Shown: positions 27 to 12,801 of the stretch, piece by piece
Position numbering within the stretch: position 1 is the first letter of the stretch
How the letters are laid out: each line of letters begins with the position of its first letter
Origin: an uncultured Verrucomicrobiota bacterium
Lineage (GTDB): Bacteria > Verrucomicrobiota > Kiritimatiellia > CAIQIC01 > Lenti-01
Length of the DNA stretch: 64,000 nt
Direction: 5' to 3'
Assembly: GCA_964399775.1 (NCBI GenBank)
Contig: CAYNSH010000007.1
Coordinates: forward strand, 788 to 64,787
Position numbers and translations under genes: made by a program
The notes under the pieces: generated by a model
The model's database searches: none
The model's input: the letters and a program-made list of their open reading frames with translations, nothing else
Told to the model about the DNA's origin: nothing

Positions 27-135
27 AGTAAAAATTGAGATTAAACAGTTGCACTGCTCCTGTAAATCGGGCAATCTGCCGGGCATTCGACGGGGTTTGG
101 ACCATTTAAAAATACACCTAAGCAAGGAGCATCGA

Positions 136-3100
136 ATGAAAGCTAAGTGGTTGAGTGGTTTTTTGATCGGAGCGCTGGCGCTCACCGGGGCGGCATACGG
201 GCAGATTCGCGACGTCACCTTCTCGGTGGATATGGCCGTGCAGATCGACTTGAACAACTTCGACCCCGACACCATGGGAGTGGACGTACGCGGGGGATTC
301 AACGGCTGGGGCCAGACGGCTCTGTCCCGCGTCGGCGCAACCACCGTCTATGCCGAAACCGTTGCCATCGAAGGCGACGAAGGCGATCCGGTGAATTACA
401 AGTTCTACTTCAACGGGCCTGACAATTGGGAAAACGCCATTCCCGATCGCAGCTTCCAACTGGGTCCGGCCGGTGAGCCCCAAGTGCTCGATACGGTTTA
501 TTTCGACAACCAGGGCCCGCTGGGGGATGAAGTCACCGCCGATGTCACGTTCTCCGTGAACATGGCCGTTCAGATCGACCTGGGCAACTTCGATCAGGGT
601 ACCGGCGAAGTCCAGATCCGCGGGCCATTCAACGGCTGGGGTGGAACCGCGCTGACCCAAGTGGGAGAAACGACGGTCTATTCCGCGACCCTTTCGGTGA
701 CGGCTCCCGAAGGCTCGGCCGTGCCCCACAAATTCTATATCGTTGGTTTTCCTGTACCAGATGACGGGTATGAATCCGGCGATGACCGCACCTTTGTCAT
801 GGGCGAAGATGGCGTGCCCAATGTCTTGGATACGGTGTACTTCAACAACCAAGGTCCCGTGGGCCCGGAAGTCACCGCCGACGTGACCTTCTCCGTGAAC
901 ATGGGCGTGCGGATTGCGGCCGGCCAGTTCAATCCGGACACGATGGGCGTGGACGTGCGCGGTGATTTCAACGACTGGGGCACCACGGCGCTGGCCCGCG
1001 AAGGCGCCACGACGATCTATTCCGCCACGATTTCCGTCACGGCTCCGGAAGACTCGGCGGTGGAGTACAAGTTTTTTTATGATAGCGGTGAAGAGAATTG
1101 GGAAGACGACCCCAACCGCTCGTTTATCATGGGCGAAGACGGCGTGCCCCAGGTGCTGGATACGGTCTATTTCAACAACGAAGAGCCGGCCGGCGGCCTC
1201 GATCTCTCCGGCACGTGGAACCCGGCGACGACGGGTGACTACGAATTCACCGTCACGCGCAGCGATCCCGGCATCGGCGACGTGATCAACCTCGACAGCG
1301 ACAATCTTCTCGCCGCCACGGTGCCGGCCACGGTCACCTTCGCCGCCGGCGAAGACGAGGCGACCTTCAACGTGACGATTGTTTCCCTGGAAAACGGCGA
1401 TGTCACCATCACGGCGGAGGATCCCGTCAGCGGCGACATGGCCGAATACACGATGCGCATGCCGGGCATGGAGATCGATGGTCCCTGGCAGGTCTATGTC
1501 ATGGGCCCCGTGAATTATACCCTCCGCCGGGTCTACAACATCAGCGGCACGGTCAACTTGAGCAGCTCCGATCCGGGCGTCATGACCGTTCCCGCCACAG
1601 CCACCTTTGCCGGTGACGACGTCGAAACGACCTTCCAGGCCACGGCCGTCGGTTTCGGCGCCACCACCCTGACCGCCACCGATCCGGCCAACGGGATCTT
1701 TGCCCAATTCAATGCCTCCGTCGAGCCGCCCGCCTTGGAGGTCTTTGGCCCGCAGATGGTGTGGACCGGCTCGTCGCCCACCTTTACCGTGGTGCGGTAC
1801 GGGCCCGTCGGCGATGTGGTGAACTTGTCCAGCACGGACGACGCCGTCCTGCAGGTTCCCGCCACCGTGACGTTTGGCTTCGAAGAGGACACCGCCACCT
1901 TCCAGGCCCAAGCCCTCTCCGAAGGCATGGCGACCATCGGCGCCCAGAATGATGACGCCAATGCCGATCCGTGGCCGGTTTCGGTGCTGGATCCGCCGGT
2001 CTTCGTCGCCTATGACGACGCCTCGCTCTATGACGGCGGAGAGTGGACCCCGACCCCGGTGCATGTCACCGGTTTCTCCGATTGGACCGTGGAACTCAGT
2101 CCGGAGATTGAGAACTCCTTCCGCGGCGTCTTCATCGGGGAATCCGCGATCGTCGCCATCAACGAGGCTGGCGTGGCCTTTGGGTTGTACGCCAATTACT
2201 TTGACAGCGATCCGGACCCTCGCCCGGAGGTTAAATTGTTCCGCAGCTTCCCCGGTCCGATGCTGCCCGGCCAGGTTTTCTCCGTGGATGTGGGCTACGA
2301 CTGGAGCAGCGGCGCCAAGGGCTTCCGGCTGTGGGGCAGTTGGGAAGATGCCTTCTACGAGCGCTTCGAGCTGTTCAACTCGGGCAACAACACCTGGTCG
2401 TACAAGCTCGATGGTGACGATGACACCATCACGGTGGTTTGGGATGGGTACATCGAAGGCGGGTTCAAGGGCACCGTCCAGGCGGTTTGCACGGCTCCCA
2501 ACACGTTCGATTTCGGCTTCCAGCGGGCCGGCGGAGAGTGGGTCTGGGTGGAAGACGTGGTCCTGCCCGGCACGATCGACACGATCGAGTTCTACAACTG
2601 GAACGGCGGCACCGGCGATGCGGAGAACTTCTACTTCAACCGCATGTGGCTGACCGAAGCCGACGATCCGGACCCGGCCCTCGAGTTCATCGCCGGCGTT
2701 TGGGACGTCACCGCAACTGGCATGTACGAGTATACCCTGCGCCGCGTGGGTGCGGTGGAAGATGAAATCACCCTCACCAGCGACAATCCGGCGACCCTGT
2801 GGGTGCCGCCTTCCGTCACGTTCGTCGTGGGCGAAGATACGGTCAGCTTCATGGCGGAGGTTCTCGCCCTCGATCAGGGCGACGCCACCATCGAGGCATG
2901 GGATCCCGTCAGCGGAGCCATGGCCGAATTTGTCGTGCGTCCTCGCGAAGAGGAGCCCGGCATCGTCTATCTCGTCTACGACCCCGCCACTCGCGGGATG
3001 TCCTTCACGGCGCCGGCGGATCATACCTTCAGCAGCCTGGAGTGGGCCGACCTGGCGCTGGCGGCGGACCGCGATGGATTCGACTTCGCTCCGATTCCGG

Positions 3101-3204
3101 AAACCCTCTACACCATCGTCAATGGCACGGCGATCATCCACACCGATGAGGTGGGAAGCCCCCGCCGGATGGTGATCCGGGCCCATATCCGGCCGATTCT
3201 CTGA
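136..3204 (+). CDS. Secreted multi-repeat protein: signal peptide, three tandem CBM20-like starch-binding modules, four Ig-like repeats, no obvious catalytic domain
   Basis: ATG at 136 (M30 of the TTG-started ORF 49..3204) gives MKAKWLSGFLIGALALTGAAYGQ, a signal peptide. Three ~110-aa repeats carry VTFSVxM...GxFNGWG...YKF...NWE.DPNRSF...VLDTVYF, which matches the CBM20 signature (YKF...WE.DPNR). Four further ~90-aa repeats follow (P.TVTF..GED.ATF...DP.SG.MAE). Confidence 0.75.
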   Translation: MKAKWLSGFLIGALALTGAAYGQIRDVTFSVDMAVQIDLNNFDPDTMGVDVRGGFNGWGQTALSRVGATTVYAETVAIEGDEGDPVNYKFYFNGPDNWENAIPDRSFQLGPAGEPQVLDTVYFDNQGPLGDEVTADVTFSVNMAVQIDLGNFDQGTGEVQIRGPFNGWGGTALTQVGETTVYSATLSVTAPEGSAVPHKFYIVGFPVPDDGYESGDDRTFVMGEDGVPNVLDTVYFNNQGPVGPEVTADVTFSVNMGVRIAAGQFNPDTMGVDVRGDFNDWGTTALAREGATTIYSATISVTAPEDSAVEYKFFYDSGEENWEDDPNRSFIMGEDGVPQVLDTVYFNNEEPAGGLDLSGTWNPATTGDYEFTVTRSDPGIGDVINLDSDNLLAATVPATVTFAAGEDEATFNVTIVSLENGDVTITAEDPVSGDMAEYTMRMPGMEIDGPWQVYVMGPVNYTLRRVYNISGTVNLSSSDPGVMTVPATATFAGDDVETTFQATAVGFGATTLTATDPANGIFAQFNASVEPPALEVFGPQMVWTGSSPTFTVVRYGPVGDVVNLSSTDDAVLQVPATVTFGFEEDTATFQAQALSEGMATIGAQNDDANADPWPVSVLDPPVFVAYDDASLYDGGEWTPTPVHVTGFSDWTVELSPEIENSFRGVFIGESAIVAINEAGVAFGLYANYFDSDPDPRPEVKLFRSFPGPMLPGQVFSVDVGYDWSSGAKGFRLWGSWEDAFYERFELFNSGNNTWSYKLDGDDDTITVVWDGYIEGGFKGTVQAVCTAPNTFDFGFQRAGGEWVWVEDVVLPGTIDTIEFYNWNGGTGDAENFYFNRMWLTEADDPDPALEFIAGVWDVTATGMYEYTLRRVGAVEDEITLTSDNPATLWVPPSVTFVVGEDTVSFMAEVLALDQGDATIEAWDPVSGAMAEFVVRPREEEPGIVYLVYDPATRGMSFTAPADHTFSSLEWADLALAADRDGFDFAPIPETLYTIVNGTAIIHTDEVGSPRRMVIRAHIRPIL
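211..1203 (+). repeat. Tandem ~335-bp coding repeat x3 (CBM20-like modules) within the 136..3204 CDS
   Basis: Protein repeats start at aa 55, 165 and 278 of the ORF (nt 211, 541, 880) with near-identical motif blocks. The DNA-level tandem duplication is visible (gtcaccttctccgtgaacatg recurs). Confidence 0.7.
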
Positions 3205-5213: not shown

Positions 5214-5528
5214 ATGAACATGATGAAGATGATGAAGCAGGCCGCGAGCATGCAGAAGAACATGGCCAAGGTTCAGGAGGATCTGGCGTCCATGACGCTG
5301 GAACACCAGAGCGGCGGTGGCGCGGTCACGGTTTCGATCGGTGGCGAAGGAACCGTTCGCGCCATTCGCATCGATCCCAAGGTGGTCGACCCCGCCGATG
5401 TGGAAATGCTCGAAGACCTGGTGCTGACGGCGGTCCAGGGCGCGCAGGAGGCGGCCAAGCTGACCGCCGCGGCGGAAATGCAAAAGGTGACCGCCGGCAT
5501 GGGCCTCCCGCCGGGACTGGGCCTGTAG
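5214..5528 (+). CDS. ybaB: YbaB/EbfC family nucleoid-associated protein
   Basis: 104 aa with typical YbaB N-terminus (MMKQAASMQKNMAKVQEDL), located between dnaX and recR. Confidence 0.9.
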   Translation: MNMMKMMKQAASMQKNMAKVQEDLASMTLEHQSGGGAVTVSIGGEGTVRAIRIDPKVVDPADVEMLEDLVLTAVQGAQEAAKLTAAAEMQKVTAGMGLPPGLGL

Positions 5529-5575
5529 GCCGCGCGAGCGTGGATGGCGGCAAACGCCCCTGAACCTGGCCCGAG

Positions 5576-6169
5576 ATGGATCCCCTTGCACACTTGACCG
5601 AGACCCTGGCGAAGCTGCCGGGATTGGGTCGGCGTTCGGCCGAGCGTCTCGCCGTTCATCTGGCCCGGAATCCTTCCACGATGGCCCGGGATTTGTCGGC
5701 GGCCATCGAGGATGCCCGGGCGCAGTTAGAGGCCTGTCGACTGTGCGGCAGCGTTACGGCCCGTCAGGAAAACCCGTGTCGGCTGTGCTCGGATCCCCGG
5801 CGCGATGCCGCCATCCTGTGCGTGGTCGAGGATCCGGCCGACATCGCCCTGCTGGAGCGAAGCGGGGAATACCACGGACACTATTTCGCGCTGATGGGCA
5901 AGCTGTCGCCCATGCGCGGGGAGGGGATCGGCTCGCTGCGACTTCCAGCCCTCTTGGAGCGCGCGGCCAAGGCCAGGGAAGTGCTGCTGGCGCTGAACAG
6001 CGATGTGGAGAGCGAATCGACCGCGGCATACCTTCGCCACGTTCTCGCCCAAAAGCTGCCCGACCTGGTGATCAGTCGCCTGGCGCTGGGAATCCCGGCG
6101 GGAAGCGCCATTGCCTATTCGGACCCCGTCACCCTCGGTCGGGCCATCCGCGGCCGCACCCCAACCTGA
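5576..6169 (+). CDS. recR: Recombination protein RecR
   Basis: Helix-hairpin-helix (HhH) N-terminus (LPGLGRRSAERLAVHL), C4 zinc finger CRLCGSV..CRLC, Toprim region; conserved synteny. Confidence 0.92.
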   Translation: MDPLAHLTETLAKLPGLGRRSAERLAVHLARNPSTMARDLSAAIEDARAQLEACRLCGSVTARQENPCRLCSDPRRDAAILCVVEDPADIALLERSGEYHGHYFALMGKLSPMRGEGIGSLRLPALLERAAKAREVLLALNSDVESESTAAYLRHVLAQKLPDLVISRLALGIPAGSAIAYSDPVTLGRAIRGRTPT

Positions 6170-6299
6170 GTGCCTGTGGGGCCAGCCGCCCCACGGTCTT
6201 GCGTCGCGGGCTCGCGCGCCGTAGCCTCGGCGAAGGCGGGGGGCAACCGGTGACTTCCTCACCGCACCAGGTGGTGGGGCCCGCTCGAATCTATTCCGT

Positions 6300-6340
6300 T
6301 GCTTCATGCGGGAGATGTGGTATACATGGGCAGGTAAAAC
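6300..6340 (+). promoter_or_regulatory. Putative sigma70-like promoter for the DUF2760-like/Hsp70 module (TTGCTT-N16-TATACA) with a GAAGG ribosome-binding site at 6358
   Basis: Read in the 197-nt gap between recR and the 6367 start. Weak. Confidence 0.25.
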
Positions 6341-6366
6341 GTTTTATTCGATGGAGGTGTTGAAGG

Positions 6367-6876
6367 ATGAGAAGACTATTTCAAGCGTTTCAGGCCTTTT
6401 TTCGTGTGTTGCGCGACGCTCAATTCGCACAACTTGTGGCCGCAGGACCGCAATCCGCGGCGACACCGCAGGCAACGGTCCGGAGCCCCGGCACCCGTCA
6501 CGGTGCGCTTGGACTGCTGTCCGCCCTGCAGCGTGAGGCGCGTTTGGTGGATTTTCTGAAGGAACCGATCGGCGACTATCCGGATGCCCAGGTGGGCGCG
6601 GCGGTCCGCGAGGTTCACCGGCAGGCCGGAGCGGTTCTGGACCGGATGTTTGCCCTGCAACCCGTACTGAATCGTTCCGAGGGTGAAACGATAACGGTCG
6701 AGGCGAACCGCAATCCCGCCCGGGTTCAACTGGCGGGGCCGGTTTCCGGCAATCCCCCTTATCGCGGTACCCTGTGCCATCACGGTTGGCTGGCGACTCG
6801 CTGCGACGTCCCGGAATGGACCGGACGGGAAGAGGATGCCCTGGTCGTCGCCCCGGCGGAAGTCCAAATCGCTTGA
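6367..6876 (+). CDS. DUF2760-like protein (uncharacterised; typically linked to atypical Hsp70 genes)
   Basis: N-terminus MRRLFQAFQAFFRVLRDAQFAQLVAAG resembles the DUF2760 (PF10816) signature as I recall it. Sits directly upstream of the two Hsp70-like genes. Confidence 0.55.
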   Translation: MRRLFQAFQAFFRVLRDAQFAQLVAAGPQSAATPQATVRSPGTRHGALGLLSALQREARLVDFLKEPIGDYPDAQVGAAVREVHRQAGAVLDRMFALQPVLNRSEGETITVEANRNPARVQLAGPVSGNPPYRGTLCHHGWLATRCDVPEWTGREEDALVVAPAEVQIA

Positions 6877-7032
6877 ACCTCATGCAAAACTCCGGCCCAA
6901 ACGGTCGGGACGGAGCCCGGCCCTCCAGTCTGCCGTCCCATGGGCCGGTTTTCGCCTGTGGAGAGACGATCTTCGTGTCGTCCAGACGATTCGATTTCAT
7001 AGTGACGTTCTGGCCCGAGCCACGGGCCGCCT

Positions 7033-8832
7033 GTGGAGCATAAGATGAAAGCAACCTATTCCGTTGGTATTGACCTGGGCACCACCAACAGCGTGATCGC
7101 CTCGGTGGCGTTGAACGATCCGGCGGCCGCCGTGGAACTGCTGCCCATTCCGCAACTGACTGCGGCAGGCACGGTGGAAAACCTTCCCATGCTGCCGTCG
7201 TTCCTCTATCTGGCAACCCCGGCGGAGCGCGGGCACCACGACTTGCCATGGGCCGCGGACCGTGAACTGGCGGTCGGGGAGTGGGCGCGGCGCCAGGCCG
7301 CCAGCGTCCCCACCCGAACTGTCGCCGCGGCCAAATCCTGGCTGTGCCACAGCCGGGTGGACCGCTCCAAACCCATTCTGCCCTGGAACGCCCCGGACGA
7401 CGTGCCCAAGGTTTCGCCGGTCGAAGCCACGCAGCGCTACCTGGAGCATTTGCTCGAGGCCTGGAATGCCGCGCACCCGGAGGCCCCCTTGAAGCAGCAG
7501 TTGGTCACGTTGACCGTACCGGCCTCGTTCGATGCCAGCGCGCGCGACCTGACCCGCGAAGCGGCCCGGCGGGCGGGACTGCCCAAGGAGTTGGTTCTGC
7601 TGGAGGAGCCGCAAGCCGCGCTCTATGCCTGGCTGGCGACCACCGGCGAATCGTGGCGGCGGCGGCTGGCCGTGGGAGATGTCCTGCTGGTTTGCGACGT
7701 GGGCGGCGGCACCACCGATTTTACGCTGATCCGAGTGGAAGAGGCCGATGGCGACCTGCAACTGACACGCGTCGCCGTGGGCAACCACATCCTGGTTGGC
7801 GGCGACAACATGGACTTGGCCCTGGCCCACCTGGCCAAGGCCGCTTTCCAGGAAAAGGGCATCGAGATGGATGCCTGGCAGTCCGTCGCCCTGTGGCATT
7901 CGTGCCGTCTGGCCAAGGAATCGCTGCTGACCGATGGCGGTCCGGAAGTCTTTCCGGTGACCGTACTGGGGCGGGGACGTCGCGTGGTCGGCGGAACGGT
8001 CAGCGTTGATCTCCATCGTCGCCAGGTGTTGGAGACCCTGTCGGAGGGCTTTCTGCCAGCGTGCGAACTGGGGGCGGAACCGGCATCGCGCCGGGCCTCG
8101 GGATTCCGCGAACTGGGCCTGCCCTTCGAAACCGATGCGGCCATCACGCGCCACTTGTCGCGGTTTTTGTCGCGTCATGCCGCGGAGGGCGATGCGCCGG
8201 TTCGCCCGACCCATATCGTCTTCAATGGCGGCGTCTTCAAGGCGGACGCCTTGCGGTCGAGGCTGGGGGACATCTTCCGCGACTGGTTTGGGGCAGAGGG
8301 CGCCCCGGCGGTCCTGGAGGGCAGCCTGGACCTCGATTTTGCCGTGGCGCGGGGCGCCGCGCACTACGGGCGCACGAAAGTCAGTGGCGGCATTCGCATT
8401 CGTGGCGGCACCGCCCGCGCGTATTACGTCGGCATTGAGTCGTCCGGCCCCGCCGTGCCGGGCGCCGAACGCCCCCTGCGGGCTCTGTGCGTGGTGCCTC
8501 ATGGCATGGAGGAAGGCACCGAGGCCCAGGTGCCCGGCGGCGAAATCGGCCTGGTCGTGGGTGAACCGGCTCAGTTCCGGTTCTTCAGTTCCCCGGTGCG
8601 CAAGGATGATCGGCCCGGCGACCTGATCGAACAGTGGCCGGAGGGCGATCTGGTCGAAACGGATTCCATGGAAACGGTCCTGCCGGCGGCCGCCGGAAGC
8701 GAAGAGGGCTATGTCCCCGTCCGCTTCGAATCGCGCATCACCGAGCTGGGCGTCTTTGAACTCTGGTGCGTCAGCACGGGTTCGGATGAACGCTGGAAGC
8801 TCGAATTCAGCGTGCGGGATCCAGAGACCTGA
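7033..8832 (+). CDS. Hsp70-family ATPase, non-canonical (short; no standard DnaK substrate-binding/lid domain)
   Basis: Nucleotide-binding-domain motifs IDLGTTNSVIA, LVCDVGGGTTDFTLI, GGDNMDLA. 599 aa. No dnaJ/grpE nearby. Confidence 0.85.
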   Translation: MEHKMKATYSVGIDLGTTNSVIASVALNDPAAAVELLPIPQLTAAGTVENLPMLPSFLYLATPAERGHHDLPWAADRELAVGEWARRQAASVPTRTVAAAKSWLCHSRVDRSKPILPWNAPDDVPKVSPVEATQRYLEHLLEAWNAAHPEAPLKQQLVTLTVPASFDASARDLTREAARRAGLPKELVLLEEPQAALYAWLATTGESWRRRLAVGDVLLVCDVGGGTTDFTLIRVEEADGDLQLTRVAVGNHILVGGDNMDLALAHLAKAAFQEKGIEMDAWQSVALWHSCRLAKESLLTDGGPEVFPVTVLGRGRRVVGGTVSVDLHRRQVLETLSEGFLPACELGAEPASRRASGFRELGLPFETDAAITRHLSRFLSRHAAEGDAPVRPTHIVFNGGVFKADALRSRLGDIFRDWFGAEGAPAVLEGSLDLDFAVARGAAHYGRTKVSGGIRIRGGTARAYYVGIESSGPAVPGAERPLRALCVVPHGMEEGTEAQVPGGEIGLVVGEPAQFRFFSSPVRKDDRPGDLIEQWPEGDLVETDSMETVLPAAAGSEEGYVPVRFESRITELGVFELWCVSTGSDERWKLEFSVRDPET

Positions 8833-8839
8833 TCGCCGC

Positions 8840-11575
8840 ATGAGCGAATCCGCCAGCCGTCCGCCGCGCTATGCGGTGGGCATCGATTTGGGCACCACCC
8901 AGTCCGCCATGGCGTTTGTCGACCGGAAGGGGGCCGGGCGCATCGAGGATATTCGGATTCCGCAGGTCGTCGCGCCGGGCGTCACCGAGGCACGCGATAC
9001 GCTGCCGTCGTTCCTGTATGAAGCGGCCCCCGGCGAGGTGAAGGCCGGTGCGTTCAATCTGCCGTGGAGTTCGGACGGGCAAACACGCGTGGCGGGCTGG
9101 TGGGCCCGCGAGCGCGGTGCGGCGATGCCGGGACGCCTGGTGGCCTCCGCCAAATCCTGGCTGTGCCATGCGGGCGTGGACCGTACCGCGCCGATCCTGC
9201 CCTGGCATGGCGCCCCCGAGGTGAACCGCCTTTCCCCGGTCGATGCCGCCGTCCACTTCCTGGCGCACATGCGCGGGGCCTGGAACCACGCCCATCCGTC
9301 CCATCCCCTCGAACACCAGGATGTGGTGGTGACGATTCCGGCATCGTTCGATGAGGTGGCGCGGGAACTGACCGCCGAGGCGGCCGCGCGCGCCGGCCTG
9401 GAGCAGGCCCTCTTGATCGAAGAACCCCAGGCCGCATTCTATGCCTGGATGGCGGAACAACCCGAAGGGGGGAGCGGGTCCATTCCGCCCGGCCAGCTTG
9501 TCCTGGTTTGCGACATCGGCGGAGGGACCACCGACTTGACCTTGATCGAAACCGTTCCGGATGGAGACCGCGGCGTGTCGTTCCGGCGAATCGCCGTCGG
9601 CGACCACTTGATCCTGGGCGGCGACAACCTGGATCTGGCCCTGGCCTATCATCTGGAGCCGCGGGTGGCGGGGGGGCGCAAGCTGGATGCACGGCAATGG
9701 GGCATGCTGGTGCGGCAATGCTGTGCGGCCAAGGAACGGCTGCTGGGCGCGGAAGCGCCCGAGACGATGATCCTGTCGCTGCCGTTCGGCGGAAGCCGTA
9801 TAGTCGGCGGCAGTGTCCAGGTCGAACTCTCCCGCGCCGAAGCCATCGACGTGCTGGTGGATGGCTTTCTGCCGATGGTGCCGCCGGATGCCGAACCGTC
9901 CCGCACCGGGTCCGGCTTTCGGGAGTTCGGCCTGCCCTATGCGGCCGATGCCGGCATCACCCGCTATCTGGCCGACTTCCTGCGGCGGCAGGCCGGGCGG
10001 ATGCCGGACGCCGTTTTGTTGAATGGCGGATTCTTTGAATCGCCGGTATTGCGAAACCGTCTGATGGAGGTGTTGGCGTCGTGGTGTCCGACCGGCCATC
10101 CGCCGCGGGTGCTGGCGAATGCCCGCCTGGATCGGGCGGTGGCCCGCGGTGCGGCCCATTATGGCCTTGTCCGCCGCGGGCAGGGCCCGAGGATCCATTC
10201 TGGCCTGCCGCGCGCCTATTACGTCGGGGTGGCGAATGCGGAAGGGCGCTCGGGGGGTGTCGTTTGCGTGGCCCCCGCGGGCTTGGAAGAAGGCGAGGGC
10301 GTCGAGACCCCCGGGGCCCGCTTCGAAGTGTTGGTGCGCCAGCCCGTTGAGTTCCAGTTGGTGGCATCCACCACGCGCACGACCGATCAGGCGGGGGACC
10401 GGCTGGAATACGATCCTGCCCAAGTCACTCCGCTGCCGCCCATGCGCACCGTTCTGCAAACCGGCAAGAAAGCGGTGCGCTCTAGGGTGCCGGTGGGTCT
10501 GTACTGCCGCGCAACCGAGATCGGTACCTTTGAAATCTGGTGCCGGGAGCAGGGCGGTCCGCGTCAATGGCGTCTGCAATTCGATCTGCGCGCACGCCGT
10601 CCAGATGGCGAGACCGCGGCCGCCGGCGCAGGCGACACGCTCGAAGAAGCGGTGGTGTCCGCCTGCGGCGATGCGATTCGCGCGGCGTTGGCCGGTTCTG
10701 CGGAAGCCCTGGCGACCCTCCCGCGCGCGCTCGAAAGCGCCGCCGGGATTCCGCGCCCCGACTGGCCCCCGCAACTGCTTCGTCGCCTCTGGGAGGATCT
10801 GATGGCACGGCGCGAAGATCGTCGCGCCAGCCCGGCCCACGAGTCTCGCTGGCTGAACCTGGCCGGCTTTTGCCTGCGGCCGGGATTCGGGAGGGTACTG
10901 GATGATTGGCGCGTCGAAGAGATCTGGAAACTCTATTCCCAGGGCGTCCAGAATCCCCGGAATGAATTGTGCCGCGCCGAATGGTGGATTCTCTGGCGGC
11001 GCGTGGCCGGCGGACTGGATGACGGACGCCAATTGGCCTTGGCCGAGCCGCTGCTGGGACGCCTCAAGGCCCATCGCGGCACATTCGGTTGCGGGGGACA
11101 CGAGTCGGCCGAAATCTGGCGGCTCTTGGCCTGTTTGGAGCGGCTCCCGCTTGATATTCGCCGCTCGCTTGGCGAACGGCTCCGCGACCGCATCGCCCGC
11201 AAGGGGTGGGGCAGCGATCACGGATCCGCGTCCTGGGCCCTGGCCCGCCTGGCCTCCCGCGTTCCATTCTATGGCTCCCTTCAGGGCGTGATCGAACCCG
11301 AACAAGTCGCCCAATGGCTTCCTGCGTTGCTGGCGGCTTCGTCCCCTTCAACGGAAAACCTGTTCCAGGTCGCGCTCATGGTCCGACGCACCGGCGACCG
11401 CTACCGCGACGTGGATGACGGCATCCGCGCCCAGGTCATGCCATGGCTCAGGAAACACCACGCCGCCGATCATCTGCTGGAGCTCGTTGAACAGGGTGGG
11501 GAGCTGGATTCCCGCGAGCAAGTGCAGGCCTCCGGCGACACCCTGCCCCTGGGCCTGCGCTGGCTGGGCCCTTGA
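8840..11575 (+). CDS. Hsp70-family ATPase paralog with ~500-aa C-terminal extension of unknown function
   Basis: Start at the ATG 7 nt after the upstream stop (M44 of ORF 8711..11575; MSESASRPPRYAVGIDLGTTQSAMA). Motifs VCDIGGGTTDLTLI. Alignable blocks with the upstream Hsp70 (PSFLY..AKSWLCH..PILPW..PASFD). The C-terminal ~500 aa is Trp/Arg/Leu-rich and non-Hsp70. Confidence 0.85.
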   Translation: MSESASRPPRYAVGIDLGTTQSAMAFVDRKGAGRIEDIRIPQVVAPGVTEARDTLPSFLYEAAPGEVKAGAFNLPWSSDGQTRVAGWWARERGAAMPGRLVASAKSWLCHAGVDRTAPILPWHGAPEVNRLSPVDAAVHFLAHMRGAWNHAHPSHPLEHQDVVVTIPASFDEVARELTAEAAARAGLEQALLIEEPQAAFYAWMAEQPEGGSGSIPPGQLVLVCDIGGGTTDLTLIETVPDGDRGVSFRRIAVGDHLILGGDNLDLALAYHLEPRVAGGRKLDARQWGMLVRQCCAAKERLLGAEAPETMILSLPFGGSRIVGGSVQVELSRAEAIDVLVDGFLPMVPPDAEPSRTGSGFREFGLPYAADAGITRYLADFLRRQAGRMPDAVLLNGGFFESPVLRNRLMEVLASWCPTGHPPRVLANARLDRAVARGAAHYGLVRRGQGPRIHSGLPRAYYVGVANAEGRSGGVVCVAPAGLEEGEGVETPGARFEVLVRQPVEFQLVASTTRTTDQAGDRLEYDPAQVTPLPPMRTVLQTGKKAVRSRVPVGLYCRATEIGTFEIWCREQGGPRQWRLQFDLRARRPDGETAAAGAGDTLEEAVVSACGDAIRAALAGSAEALATLPRALESAAGIPRPDWPPQLLRRLWEDLMARREDRRASPAHESRWLNLAGFCLRPGFGRVLDDWRVEEIWKLYSQGVQNPRNELCRAEWWILWRRVAGGLDDGRQLALAEPLLGRLKAHRGTFGCGGHESAEIWRLLACLERLPLDIRRSLGERLRDRIARKGWGSDHGSASWALARLASRVPFYGSLQGVIEPEQVAQWLPALLAASSPSTENLFQVALMVRRTGDRYRDVDDGIRAQVMPWLRKHHAADHLLELVEQGGELDSREQVQASGDTLPLGLRWLGP

Positions 11576-11577
11576 GG

Positions 11578-12801
11578 TCAATCGCTGGCGAGGGTGTCGA
11601 AGTAGCCTTGGATATAGACCACCGGCGTTCCTTTGTCGCCGCTGCCGGAGATGAGATCGCACAGGGAGCCGATCAGGTCGGTGAGCCGCCGGGGCGTCGT
11701 GCCCTGGGATTCCATGGCGCCGGTCAGGTTCGGTTTCTTGGCCTGGATCTGCCGGACCACGGCATCGCGCAGGGCCTGGCCGGTCAGGCTGGAAAACTGA
11801 TTGTCGGCCAGGTACTTGATTTTCAGCTCGTTGGGCGTGCCGGCCAATCCCGCGGTGAAGGCGGGGGAGACGACCGGATCGGCCAGCTCCCAGATCTTGC
11901 CCACCGGATCCTTGAATGCGCCATCGCCGTAGATCATGGCCTCGACCGTCTTGCCCGTACGTTCGCGGAACAGGTCCTGGATACGGTCGACGGTCGATTG
12001 GCCATCGCGGGGAAACAGCTTCACGGTCTCATCGGTGGCCTTGTTGGAGCCCAGCAGTCCATACTCCGGATGATAGCCGCTGCCATCCACCGGCACGGAC
12101 AAAATGTCGTCAAGTCCGTAGACCCGGCCGGCGCCGGCGTCGTGCAAAATCCGTTTGGTCCGGGCCCGCGTGTGAATGTCGCACACCAGGACATCGCGGA
12201 CATGGCCCAGGATGGACTGGGGCCGATTGGAAAACAGGATGGTGCACGAGGTCCCCTCGGCTTCGATCAGCGACCGGTAGTAGGCCACATAGTCGATGCC
12301 GGTGAAGGGATGCGCACAGGTGGCGCCGAAAAGGTCGCGGTAGCGATCCTCGGTGAGGTCGTCCGCCCATGGATTCAGCCCCAGTTCGTCCAGGCGCTCT
12401 GGATCCATGAGAGGGTTTCCTACTTCGTCGGCAGGATAGCTCAGTTGCAGCACGATCCGGCCGGTGCTGCGGGCGATGGCCTTGAGCAGGATGGCATACC
12501 GGTTGCGACTGAGGATCGGGAAGACGACCCCGAGGGCCTTCCCGCCGAATTTGGATTGGAGATCCTTGGCGATCGCGTCCACGGTGGCGTAGTTGCCTTG
12601 GGCCCGTGCCAGCACGGATTCGGTCACCCCCACCACATCCCGGTCCCGGATGGAAAACCCTTCGGACTCGGCGGCTTGCAGGACACCGTCGACCACCATG
12701 GCCTCGAGGGAGTCGCCGGACCGGATGATCGGGATGCGGATGCCCCGGGCCACGGTTCCGACGACGCGTCCGCGGTTCTCCTGATCTATCCCGTTTTGCA
12801 T
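11578..12801 (-). CDS. Coenzyme F420-0:L-glutamate ligase (CofE)-like protein
   Basis: N-terminal IPIIRSGDSLEAMVVDG...DRDVVGVTESVLARAQG matches the CofE pattern (GDDL...VV..ST..SKAEGR). 407 aa with extra C-terminal region. Family call only. Confidence 0.5.
   Translation of the reverse strand: MQNGIDQENRGRVVGTVARGIRIPIIRSGDSLEAMVVDGVLQAAESEGFSIRDRDVVGVTESVLARAQGNYATVDAIAKDLQSKFGGKALGVVFPILSRNRYAILLKAIARSTGRIVLQLSYPADEVGNPLMDPERLDELGLNPWADDLTEDRYRDLFGATCAHPFTGIDYVAYYRSLIEAEGTSCTILFSNRPQSILGHVRDVLVCDIHTRARTKRILHDAGAGRVYGLDDILSVPVDGSGYHPEYGLLGSNKATDETVKLFPRDGQSTVDRIQDLFRERTGKTVEAMIYGDGAFKDPVGKIWELADPVVSPAFTAGLAGTPNELKIKYLADNQFSSLTGQALRDAVVRQIQAKKPNLTGAMESQGTTPRRLTDLIGSLCDLISGSGDKGTPVVYIQGYFDTLASD

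Follow-up and report, generated by a model that had tools for sequence, protein, structure and literature searches.

A three-gene locus in an uncultured Verrucomicrobiota bacterium that probably specifies an uncharacterised, membrane-associated and J-independent Hsp70 system

In the mitochondrial import motor, made up of mtHsp70, Tim44 and Mge1, the Hsp70 is tethered at the inner membrane face and is cycled by a GrpE-type exchange factor, and in Escherichia coli the J-protein DjlC is membrane-anchored. A 2026 review called the bacterial derivatives of DnaK 'dark matter' that is largely unexplored. HscC receives a mention in PMC13580251. In the type III CoCoNuT systems, CnuD is linked to CnuB, CnuC/DUF2357 and, usually, HEPN nucleases. 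Here, we analyse a locus of three co-directional genes in a 64,000 nt stretch of DNA (referred to as the window) from contig CAYNSH010000007.1 of an uncultured Verrucomicrobiota bacterium. The genes encode a small DUF2760 protein (g1), a first Hsp70-like protein (g2) and a second Hsp70-like protein with a DUF3731 tail (g3), and together are called the module, or the triad where all three are present.

The locus probably represents an uncharacterised Hsp70 system that is membrane-associated and independent of J-proteins. The module is widely conserved, with relatives in thousands of sequence clusters, and is functionally uncharacterised. Though an earlier reading of this DNA made from the letters alone (the sequence-only reading) took the association of DUF2760 with pairs of Hsp70 proteins to be established, it was not found in the literature and is evident only from genome context; the searchable full-text literature contains no mention of DUF2760, DUF3731 or their accessions. 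VC1373–1375 of Vibrio cholerae is probably the same module, judging from its annotation, which describes an operon of three genes, two of them for 'DnaK-related proteins'. This operon was scored as repressed in biofilm, and HapR binds the VC1375 promoter and activates it in vivo and in vitro. The stk locus of Myxococcus is not a further example, as StkB is SCP2-like and StkC is PhaE-like.

The two Hsp70-like ATPases

The motifs IDLGTT[NQ]S, D[VI]GGGTTD, GGDN, PSFLY, AKSWLCH and PILPW are found in both g2 and g3, and the two proteins share 44 % identity across 591 columns (E=3e-149), with residues 9–595 of g2 aligned to residues 11–584 of g3. At the sequence level they are clearly paralogues, as the sequence-only reading had recognised from such motifs. 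The paralogous span includes the ATPase domain and a beta-rich domain of ~130 aa located behind the nucleotide-binding domain (NBD). As the paralogy extends to g3 residue 584, g2 is not simply truncated or an NBD stump, and of the earlier description of g2 as truncated and without a lid only the second part stands.

Both proteins are non-canonical members of the Hsp70 group. Their matches to PF00012 (55.5 bits for g2 and 61.5 bits for g3; cutoff 20.6) cover only part of the NBD and, in NCBIfam, where HscA and DnaK models are the best matches of both, the best scores against the DnaK/HscA equivalogs are 55–80 bits compared to cutoffs of 620–1019 and the matches reach only the first 245–284 of ~600 profile positions. 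A PDB profile search with g3 found the DnaK NBD only, the best PDB matches all being NBDs of DnaK/Hsp70 proteins, and both the Pfam and the PDB profile matches end at approximately residue 340. No similarity between the domain that follows the NBD and the substrate-binding domain (SBD) of DnaK/Hsc70 was found using Pfam, PDB and local hhalign searches with shallow profiles, and on sequence grounds g2 and g3 appear to lack a recognisable SBD or lid.

The residues needed for catalysis and for interaction with partners were examined in an alignment of g2, g3 and 16 orthologues using E. coli DnaK numbering; part of the NBD and of the substrate-binding region of the DnaK reference sequence was checked by PDB searches. 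All 18 sequences keep D8, T11-12, K70, P143, R151, E171, D194-GGGT, T199, D201, K270 and G341-342 and, because these catalytic Hsp70 residues are retained, we infer that g2 and g3 are active ATPases. The hydrophobic interdomain linker VLLLD is missing, the linker columns being gaps. At the J-docking positions, R167 is kept in two of the 18 sequences and is otherwise V, T or L (15 sequences) or I (one sequence); N170 is replaced by E throughout, and T173 is Q or I.

These features bear directly on whether g2 and g3 could be an ordinary, diverged DnaK/HscA pair that serves as a general or Fe-S chaperone. The HscA and DnaK models at the top of the NCBIfam matches would fit, but the scores are far below the cutoffs, the homology is restricted to the NBD, the linker and the J-docking residues are missing, no SBD or lid is recognisable, and no hscB, isc, dnaJ or grpE gene lies nearby. 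An ordinary chaperone pair is thus barely credible and, as far as sequence can show, refuted by the scores, domains, linker, docking residues and neighbours; the earlier expectation that the function would be something other than general proteostasis is supported.

The g3 protein continues C-terminal to the Hsp70 domain in an extension of its own, previously described as ~500 aa long and belonging to no recognised family. It is ~325 aa long and is catalogued in Pfam as DUF3731, 'DNA-K related protein' (PF12531), with a match at residues 664–907 (259 bits, cutoff 25, E=7e-77) that covers profile positions 1–247 of 248. An AlphaFold2 (AF2) model of g3 residues 421–911, with a predicted local distance difference test (pLDDT) score of 86.7, consists of the last helix of the NBD, an 11-strand beta domain (~459–582; strands at model positions 39–162, pLDDT ~85–93) and an all-alpha repeat (~603–898). 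In this model the DUF3731 region is predicted to fold as a HEAT/ARM solenoid, with stacked antiparallel helix pairs arranged in a superhelix.

A homologue search with g3 yielded at least 8,000 database clusters. Among the sequences recovered were two natural fusions of g2 to g3 of ~1,500 aa that are independent and only 40–54 % identical to each other; one has a DUF2760 gene upstream, and in the other the two parts are joined by a clean linker of 25 aa. Hence, a physical partnership between g2 and g3 is supported.

The DUF2760 protein and a proposed mechanism

The assignment of g1 to DUF2760, which had been suggested from the letters alone, is borne out by a match to PF10816 of 142 bits (cutoff 25, E=1e-41) that covers profile positions 3–123 of 124. 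At 50 % identity there are 2,113 representatives of the family, and each is a small protein that stands alone. In the AF2 model of g1 (pLDDT 83), helices are predicted at residues 2–15 and 18–25, and the N-terminal helix (consensus MxRLxxAFRAFFRVL) has a hydrophobic moment of 0.77 and a net charge of +3, with A7, F11 and F12 conserved in at least 90 % of the DUF2760 alignment. This part is followed by a linker that varies in length and sequence across the alignment and has a pLDDT of <50 at residues 37–44, and then by a C-terminal domain consisting of two helical segments and six strands. Q55, R59, D62, H138, G140 and W141 are invariant in 80 diverse DUF2760 members, and conservation across the family is strongest in the C-terminal domain rather than in the anchor.

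The amphipathic motif was found in at least 95 of 150 diverse DUF2760 representatives, while 20 of the 150 have one or two true transmembrane helices in its place. One example of the latter, in metagenome locus L030 (6725–7384), has the N-terminal transmembrane helix MVALAIGIAAGFVLGLLVG, no amphipathic helix and no adjoining Hsp70 gene. As one can replace the other, the simplest explanation is that the amphipathic helix and the transmembrane segments are both membrane anchors. Therefore, judging from their sequences, DUF2760 proteins most likely sit on the cytoplasmic side of the membrane with the conserved domain on a flexible tether. The sequence-only reading had suggested a role in stress, defence or the cell envelope, which is unspecific; the evidence assembled here points to the cytoplasmic membrane.

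FtsA and MreB are also anchored by an amphipathic helix, and the tethering by g1 is reminiscent of this arrangement. This and weak cross-matches to MreB_Mbl in Pfam and NCBIfam raise the question of whether g2 and g3 are instead actin-like polymerising or scaffolding proteins (MreB/FtsA/ParM-like) that g1 brings to the membrane. We consider this very improbable, as MreB models score only 24–33 bits compared to 55–80 bits for Hsp70 models, the best PDB matches are exclusively to DnaK/Hsp70 NBDs and the catalytic signature, which includes the K70 equivalent, is of the Hsp70 type.

We propose that the module forms a self-contained, specialised Hsp70-type machine that probably works at the cytoplasmic membrane, on its inner face. 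In this proposal, g1 would recruit the g2-type ATPase or ATPases to the membrane and, via a GrpE-like domain, would act as a dedicated nucleotide-exchange factor or cycle regulator, standing in for partners of both the DnaJ type and the GrpE type. The g2 and g3 proteins would pair as a heterodimer, as in Hsp70–Hsp110 or Ssz1-type pairs, with the HEAT solenoid of g3 serving as a platform for clients or adaptors. The machine would use ATP to remodel a specific client near the membrane rather than to fold proteins in bulk, and would do so without a J-protein. The minimal core would be DUF2760 and a g2-type Hsp70, and g3 would be an accessory that is often but not always encoded alongside. Taken as a joint model, including the exchange role of g1 and the pairing of g2 with g3, we regard this as evenly poised between right and wrong.

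The exchange role depends on the resemblance of g1 to GrpE. In a Foldseek search of 350,542 chains using g1, GrpE ranked at the top with a match that is non-significant, and the only consistent structural neighbours of the g1 C-terminal domain were GrpE proteins, which came from four species. The term GrpE-like thus denotes the top-ranked but statistically weak structural resemblance of a predicted model, and its weight is mainly contextual because the adjacent gene encodes an Hsp70.

Several findings weigh against the proposal. PF01025 (GrpE) gave no match among 46 DUF2760 members at E values up to 10, a PDB profile search with DUF2760 found no GrpE, and two hhalign runs of DUF2760 against GrpE returned probabilities of only 0.05–0.07 % with GrpE profiles that were shallow because the GrpE homologue search had gathered only sequences from Enterobacteriaceae and Geobacillus. 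In addition, g3 adjoins in only ~40 % of DUF2760 loci (see below) and a stoichiometric machine of three proteins may, therefore, be limited to some members of the family. The heterodimer, the exchange activity and the binding to the membrane are, moreover, all inferred.

The negative outcome of all sequence-based GrpE tests and the non-significant Foldseek match would be accounted for if the machine were the same but DUF2760 were a membrane tether or recruiter, in a role like that of Tim44 or DjlC, or a regulatory pseudo-substrate, with the likeness to GrpE convergent or coincidental. Of the features of g1, the N-terminal anchor and the flexible tether have the best support, and the hydrophobic and basic N-terminal helix may resemble a typical Hsp70-binding peptide. 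However, conservation in the family peaks in the C-terminal domain rather than in the anchor, and finding GrpE from four species as the sole consistent structural neighbours is hard to dismiss when the next gene encodes an Hsp70. Hence, we judge it unlikely that tethering or pseudo-substrate activity is all that DUF2760 contributes.

Conservation, gene context and layout of the locus

Related loci, labelled L001 onward, were collected from several sources including a scan of a genome collection that used one protein as query and gave five Acidobacteriota loci. The order g1-g2-g3 is found in the five Acidobacteriota metagenome-assembled genomes, on a Comamonadaceae plasmid, on a conjugative Bradyrhizobium plasmid, on secondary replicons of Burkholderia and on several metagenome contigs of the Planctomycetes–Verrucomicrobia–Chlamydiae (PVC) type. 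Overall, the module was confirmed by sequence in Acidobacteriota, on contigs of Planctomycetota/Kiritimatiellota type and in alpha-, beta- and gamma-proteobacteria. The full triad is present in the alpha- and beta-proteobacteria (Burkholderia, Comamonadaceae and Bradyrhizobium), and in the gamma-proteobacteria only a two-gene form was seen, in Thiodictyon. In most loci neighbouring genes of the module overlap or are very closely spaced, which also fits a physical partnership of g2 with g3, and the flanks are unrelated between triad contexts. The same gene order with unrelated flanks in several phyla agrees with the earlier view of the module as self-contained.

A census of 80 metagenome loci anchored on DUF2760 provided a measure of how strict the association is. 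A g2-type Hsp70 starts no more than 1.2 kb downstream of DUF2760 in 48 of the 56 loci with enough sequence. Only the 34 loci whose sequence continues downstream for 2.6 kb or more were scored for the triad, and these comprise 13 triads, 17 loci with DUF2760 and a g2-type Hsp70 only and four with DUF2760 alone. The second Hsp70 in the 13 triads always carries DUF3731 where there is enough sequence. Conserved co-occurrence, as foreseen, therefore holds in that the triad recurs, but not as an obligate unit; the invariant core is DUF2760 with a g2-type Hsp70. The g3 protein may be an accessory, possibly encoded elsewhere in loci without it. No recurrent gene was found in place of g3 in the two-gene loci, and the neighbours of DUF2760 genes without an Hsp70 are unrelated to each other.

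Departures from the compact arrangement were seen in some loci. In L028 (9417–10555) and L018 (10320–10739), g2 and g3 are 0.4–1.1 kb apart rather than abutting, which suggests that their linkage is loosening in these PVC-type lineages. In L004 (9863–12601), L005 (7995–10827) and L020 (8520–13130), g3 is broken up into several ORFs, as is g2 in L020; because all three come from assemblies with names of the 'contig_NNNN' style, sequencing indels and true pseudogenes are equally likely. In the Bradyrhizobium sp. CB82 plasmid pCB82_1 (L011, 4387–12898), a groES-groEL pair lies ~1 kb downstream of the triad.

The absence of adjacent dnaJ, grpE and hscB genes noted earlier was confirmed more widely. 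When GrpE, DnaK and the J-domain of DnaJ were used as tblastn queries, no dnaK, grpE or J-domain was found besides g2 and g3 in the 64-kb window and the fetched flanks of L001–L016, and no dnaJ/grpE or hscB/isc genes are present in the Pfam gene tables of the contexts examined.

The gene neighbourhoods also bear on whether the module serves in conflict or in defence against phages, with the Hsp70-like and HEAT protein sensing invader molecules, as in the models of CoCoNuT CnuD and the GTPase-centred HSP70/GrpE systems. The domain order of g3 fits the description of CnuD (PMC11090510), and the described conflict systems pair HSP70, GrpE and a second HSP70 that has no SBD (Kaur et al., PMC7159879). 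Defence-like neighbours are present in three of the 12 annotated contexts. In L013 (6318–8836; Thiodictyon plasmid pTs485), g1 and g2 only are found near DISARM-like DUF1156 and PLD genes, VapC and TIR genes. L015 (8001–10775) contains a solo g3 with TIR, HEPN-Toprim, toxin-antitoxin and DDE transposase genes; the HEPN_Toprim_N gene lies upstream of g3, with no CnuB/CnuC-type gene. L017 (8001–10478) again includes only g1 and g2, here with Shedu-like SduA_C and Uma2 genes. The TIR neighbours in this set of loci are of the TIR/SEFIR type.

However, all three of these modules are incomplete; defence islands may have been inserted into the operon, or these may be distinct variants. Complete triads lie mostly amid housekeeping genes (recR, ribosomal proteins, tmk and obg) or sensor-kinase genes, and the GC content of the module in the window is close to and continuous with that of its flanks. 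No GAP1-N2/TRAFAC or McrB-like GTPase, tubulin or effector domain was found in the ~17 contexts examined, and no Pfam domains of the CnuB, CnuC or HEPN type in the window or beside complete triads. In PADLOC-DB 2.0 the only match was a partial one of 18 bits between g2 and PDC-M61B, with none for g1 or g3, and no relatives of the module were found in 50,697 phage records or in 2.9 M viral contigs (IMG/VR). Hence, the suggested enrichment in defence islands was not found, and we consider a conflict system quite improbable.

In the window, all three ORFs are present in the order and orientation first read, with g3 starting 7 nt past the g2 stop, and the only revision is to the start of g2 (Table 1). 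The g2 ORF also permits a GTG start at 7033 (599 aa), but the ATG at 7045 is more likely on sequence grounds because GGAG lies 5 nt upstream and the public gene calls use the 595-aa form. The ORF of g3 opens at 8711, and its ATG start is the one that gives the 911 aa used in public gene calls. The spacer between g1 and g2 is unusually long at 156 nt, g1 and g2 abutting or overlapping in most other loci. The hairpin in this spacer could act as a partial terminator that sets the ratio of g1 to g2/g3 expression; the fold of the spacer (6877–7050) is not significant (z = -1.5), and the hairpin was not called by the terminator scan. Rfam gave no match within 5500–12500, and promoter and terminator scans across 5900–12000 found nothing above chance.

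Table 1. Positions in the window of the three genes and of the features recognised within and between them
Feature	Position	Strand	Basis
g1 ribosome-binding site, GGAGGTG	6353-6359	+	Read from sequence; 7 nt 5' of ATG 6367
g1, DUF2760 protein, 169 aa	6367-6876	+	Pfam PF10816, AF2 model
g1 residues 2-25, conserved cationic amphipathic helix, putative in-plane membrane anchor	6370-6441	+	AF2 helices, hydrophobic moment, alignment
g1 residues 26-45, variable Pro/Ala-rich disordered linker	6442-6501	+	Low pLDDT; alignment variability
g1 residues 46-169, conserved helical hairpin and six-stranded beta domain (GrpE-like fold, weak support)	6502-6873	+	
GC-rich hairpin then UUUU in g1-g2 spacer, possible partial terminator/attenuator, weak	6892-6952	+	Minimum-free-energy fold of 6877-7050
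g2, atypical Hsp70 paralogue, 595 aa from ATG 7045	7045-8832	+	PF00012 partial match; public gene call
g2 actin-like/Hsp70 NBD, residues ~9-455 (599-aa numbering)	7057-8397	+	Alignment with E. coli DnaK
g2 C-terminal beta-rich domain, ~140 aa, common to g3, without recognisable alpha-helical lid	8398-8829	+	Alignment to g3 residues 451-584
g3, atypical Hsp70 paralogue with DUF3731 tail, 911 aa	8840-11575	+	PF00012 and PF12531
g3 NBD, residues ~11-450	8870-10189	+	Catalytic-residue alignment; PDB profile search
g3 beta-rich domain, residues ~451-585	10190-10594	+	AF2 strands; paralogous to g2 C-terminus
g3 HEAT/ARM-type alpha-solenoid (predicted), DUF3731, residues ~603-907	10646-11560	+	

Of the surrounding genes, recR upstream and the convergent CofE-like gene downstream are as originally noted; dnaX and ybaB also lie upstream, and the downstream gene belongs to PF01996 (F420-ligase/CofE-like). 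The PF01996 gene (11578–12801, minus strand) has its stop only 2 nt from that of g3 (11575–11578), and no terminator-like structure was found between the two stops. The recR ORF (5576–6169) permits 197 aa, and public gene calls use 162 aa with a start ~105 nt downstream. A large ORF at 49–3204 (plus strand; 1051 aa, 1022 aa in public records) has no Pfam match. In it the motif VTFSV.M..Q.. ...VRG.FN.WG recurs in a minimum of three tandem repeats, each ~95 aa long, and other modules are repeated further downstream. The minus strand has a mirror ORF of 1022 aa (118–3186), which is probably a high-GC artefact.

Significance and comparison with described systems

As the protein families involved are already catalogued, the module is not categorically new. 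The membrane anchor and GrpE-like fold of DUF2760, the HEAT/ARM nature of DUF3731 and the loss of the J-protein interface are new annotations, absent from the searchable literature, and they turn an annotation of 'DUF plus Hsp70' into testable roles. The g1 N-terminus would be the anchor, the g1 C-terminal domain may be responsible for nucleotide cycling, g2 would pair with g3, and the client site would be the HEAT solenoid or the beta domain. A further claim, which we put forward tentatively and regard as somewhat doubtful, is that the module represents an unrecognised class of J-protein-independent bacterial Hsp70 machine, in which one small protein is both anchor and GrpE-like exchange factor for a heterodimer of active ATPases with a HEAT/ARM client platform. 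If the GrpE-like, J-independent and membrane-tethered model were true, the accepted design space of bacterial Hsp70 machines would widen.

The module shares with machines of the DnaK/GrpE type an Hsp70 NBD with the full catalytic set and the encoding of ATPase and cofactor together in the manner of an operon, and the predicted fold of the small partner, helices followed by a compact beta domain, would be closest to GrpE. It differs in having no J-protein, J-docking residues, hydrophobic linker or recognisable SBD/lid, and in having two paralogous ATPases, one with a HEAT/ARM solenoid. Moreover, g1 does not resemble GrpE in sequence, and it has a putative membrane anchor.

HscC of E. coli, with DjlB/DjlC, is likewise a specialised non-heat-shock Hsp70 with a shortened C-terminus and a dedicated membrane-anchored cofactor. 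However, the HscC cofactor belongs to the J-domain proteins and stimulates hydrolysis of ATP, whereas DUF2760 has no J domain, and HscC keeps its SBD and has neither a paralogous second ATPase nor a HEAT domain. Two diverged Hsp70 paralogues, one with an extended C-terminus, are also found in the eukaryotic Hsp70–Hsp110 and Ssz1-type heterodimers (PMC13580251). Unlike these, the module is bacterial, both partners are catalytically intact, the C-terminal domains are unrelated to the Hsp110 SBD, and the g2–g3 heterodimer is putative.

Compared by description only, CnuD of the CoCoNuT systems (PMC11090510) has the same order of domains as g3, namely an Hsp70-like ATPase, a beta domain and a HEAT-like helical repeat. 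CnuD is, however, encoded with the McrB-like GTPase CnuB, the McrC-like CnuC and HEPN nucleases and its ATPase motifs are reported to be degenerate, whereas in the module the CnuB, CnuC and HEPN partners are absent and the ATPase motifs are intact. The adjacent GAP1-N2/TRAFAC GTPase, with or without tubulin, that characterises the GTPase-centred HSP70/GrpE conflict systems (Kaur et al. 2020, PMC7159879) is also absent here.

The remaining comparison is with the mitochondrial import motor, though no link of the module to a translocon is known. In the motor the tether and the exchange factor are separate proteins, whereas in the module both roles would be combined in DUF2760. If a single protein does serve as both anchor and exchange factor, the module would be a bacterial analogue of the Hsp70 motors that are tethered to organellar membranes, and its clients would be membrane or exported proteins.

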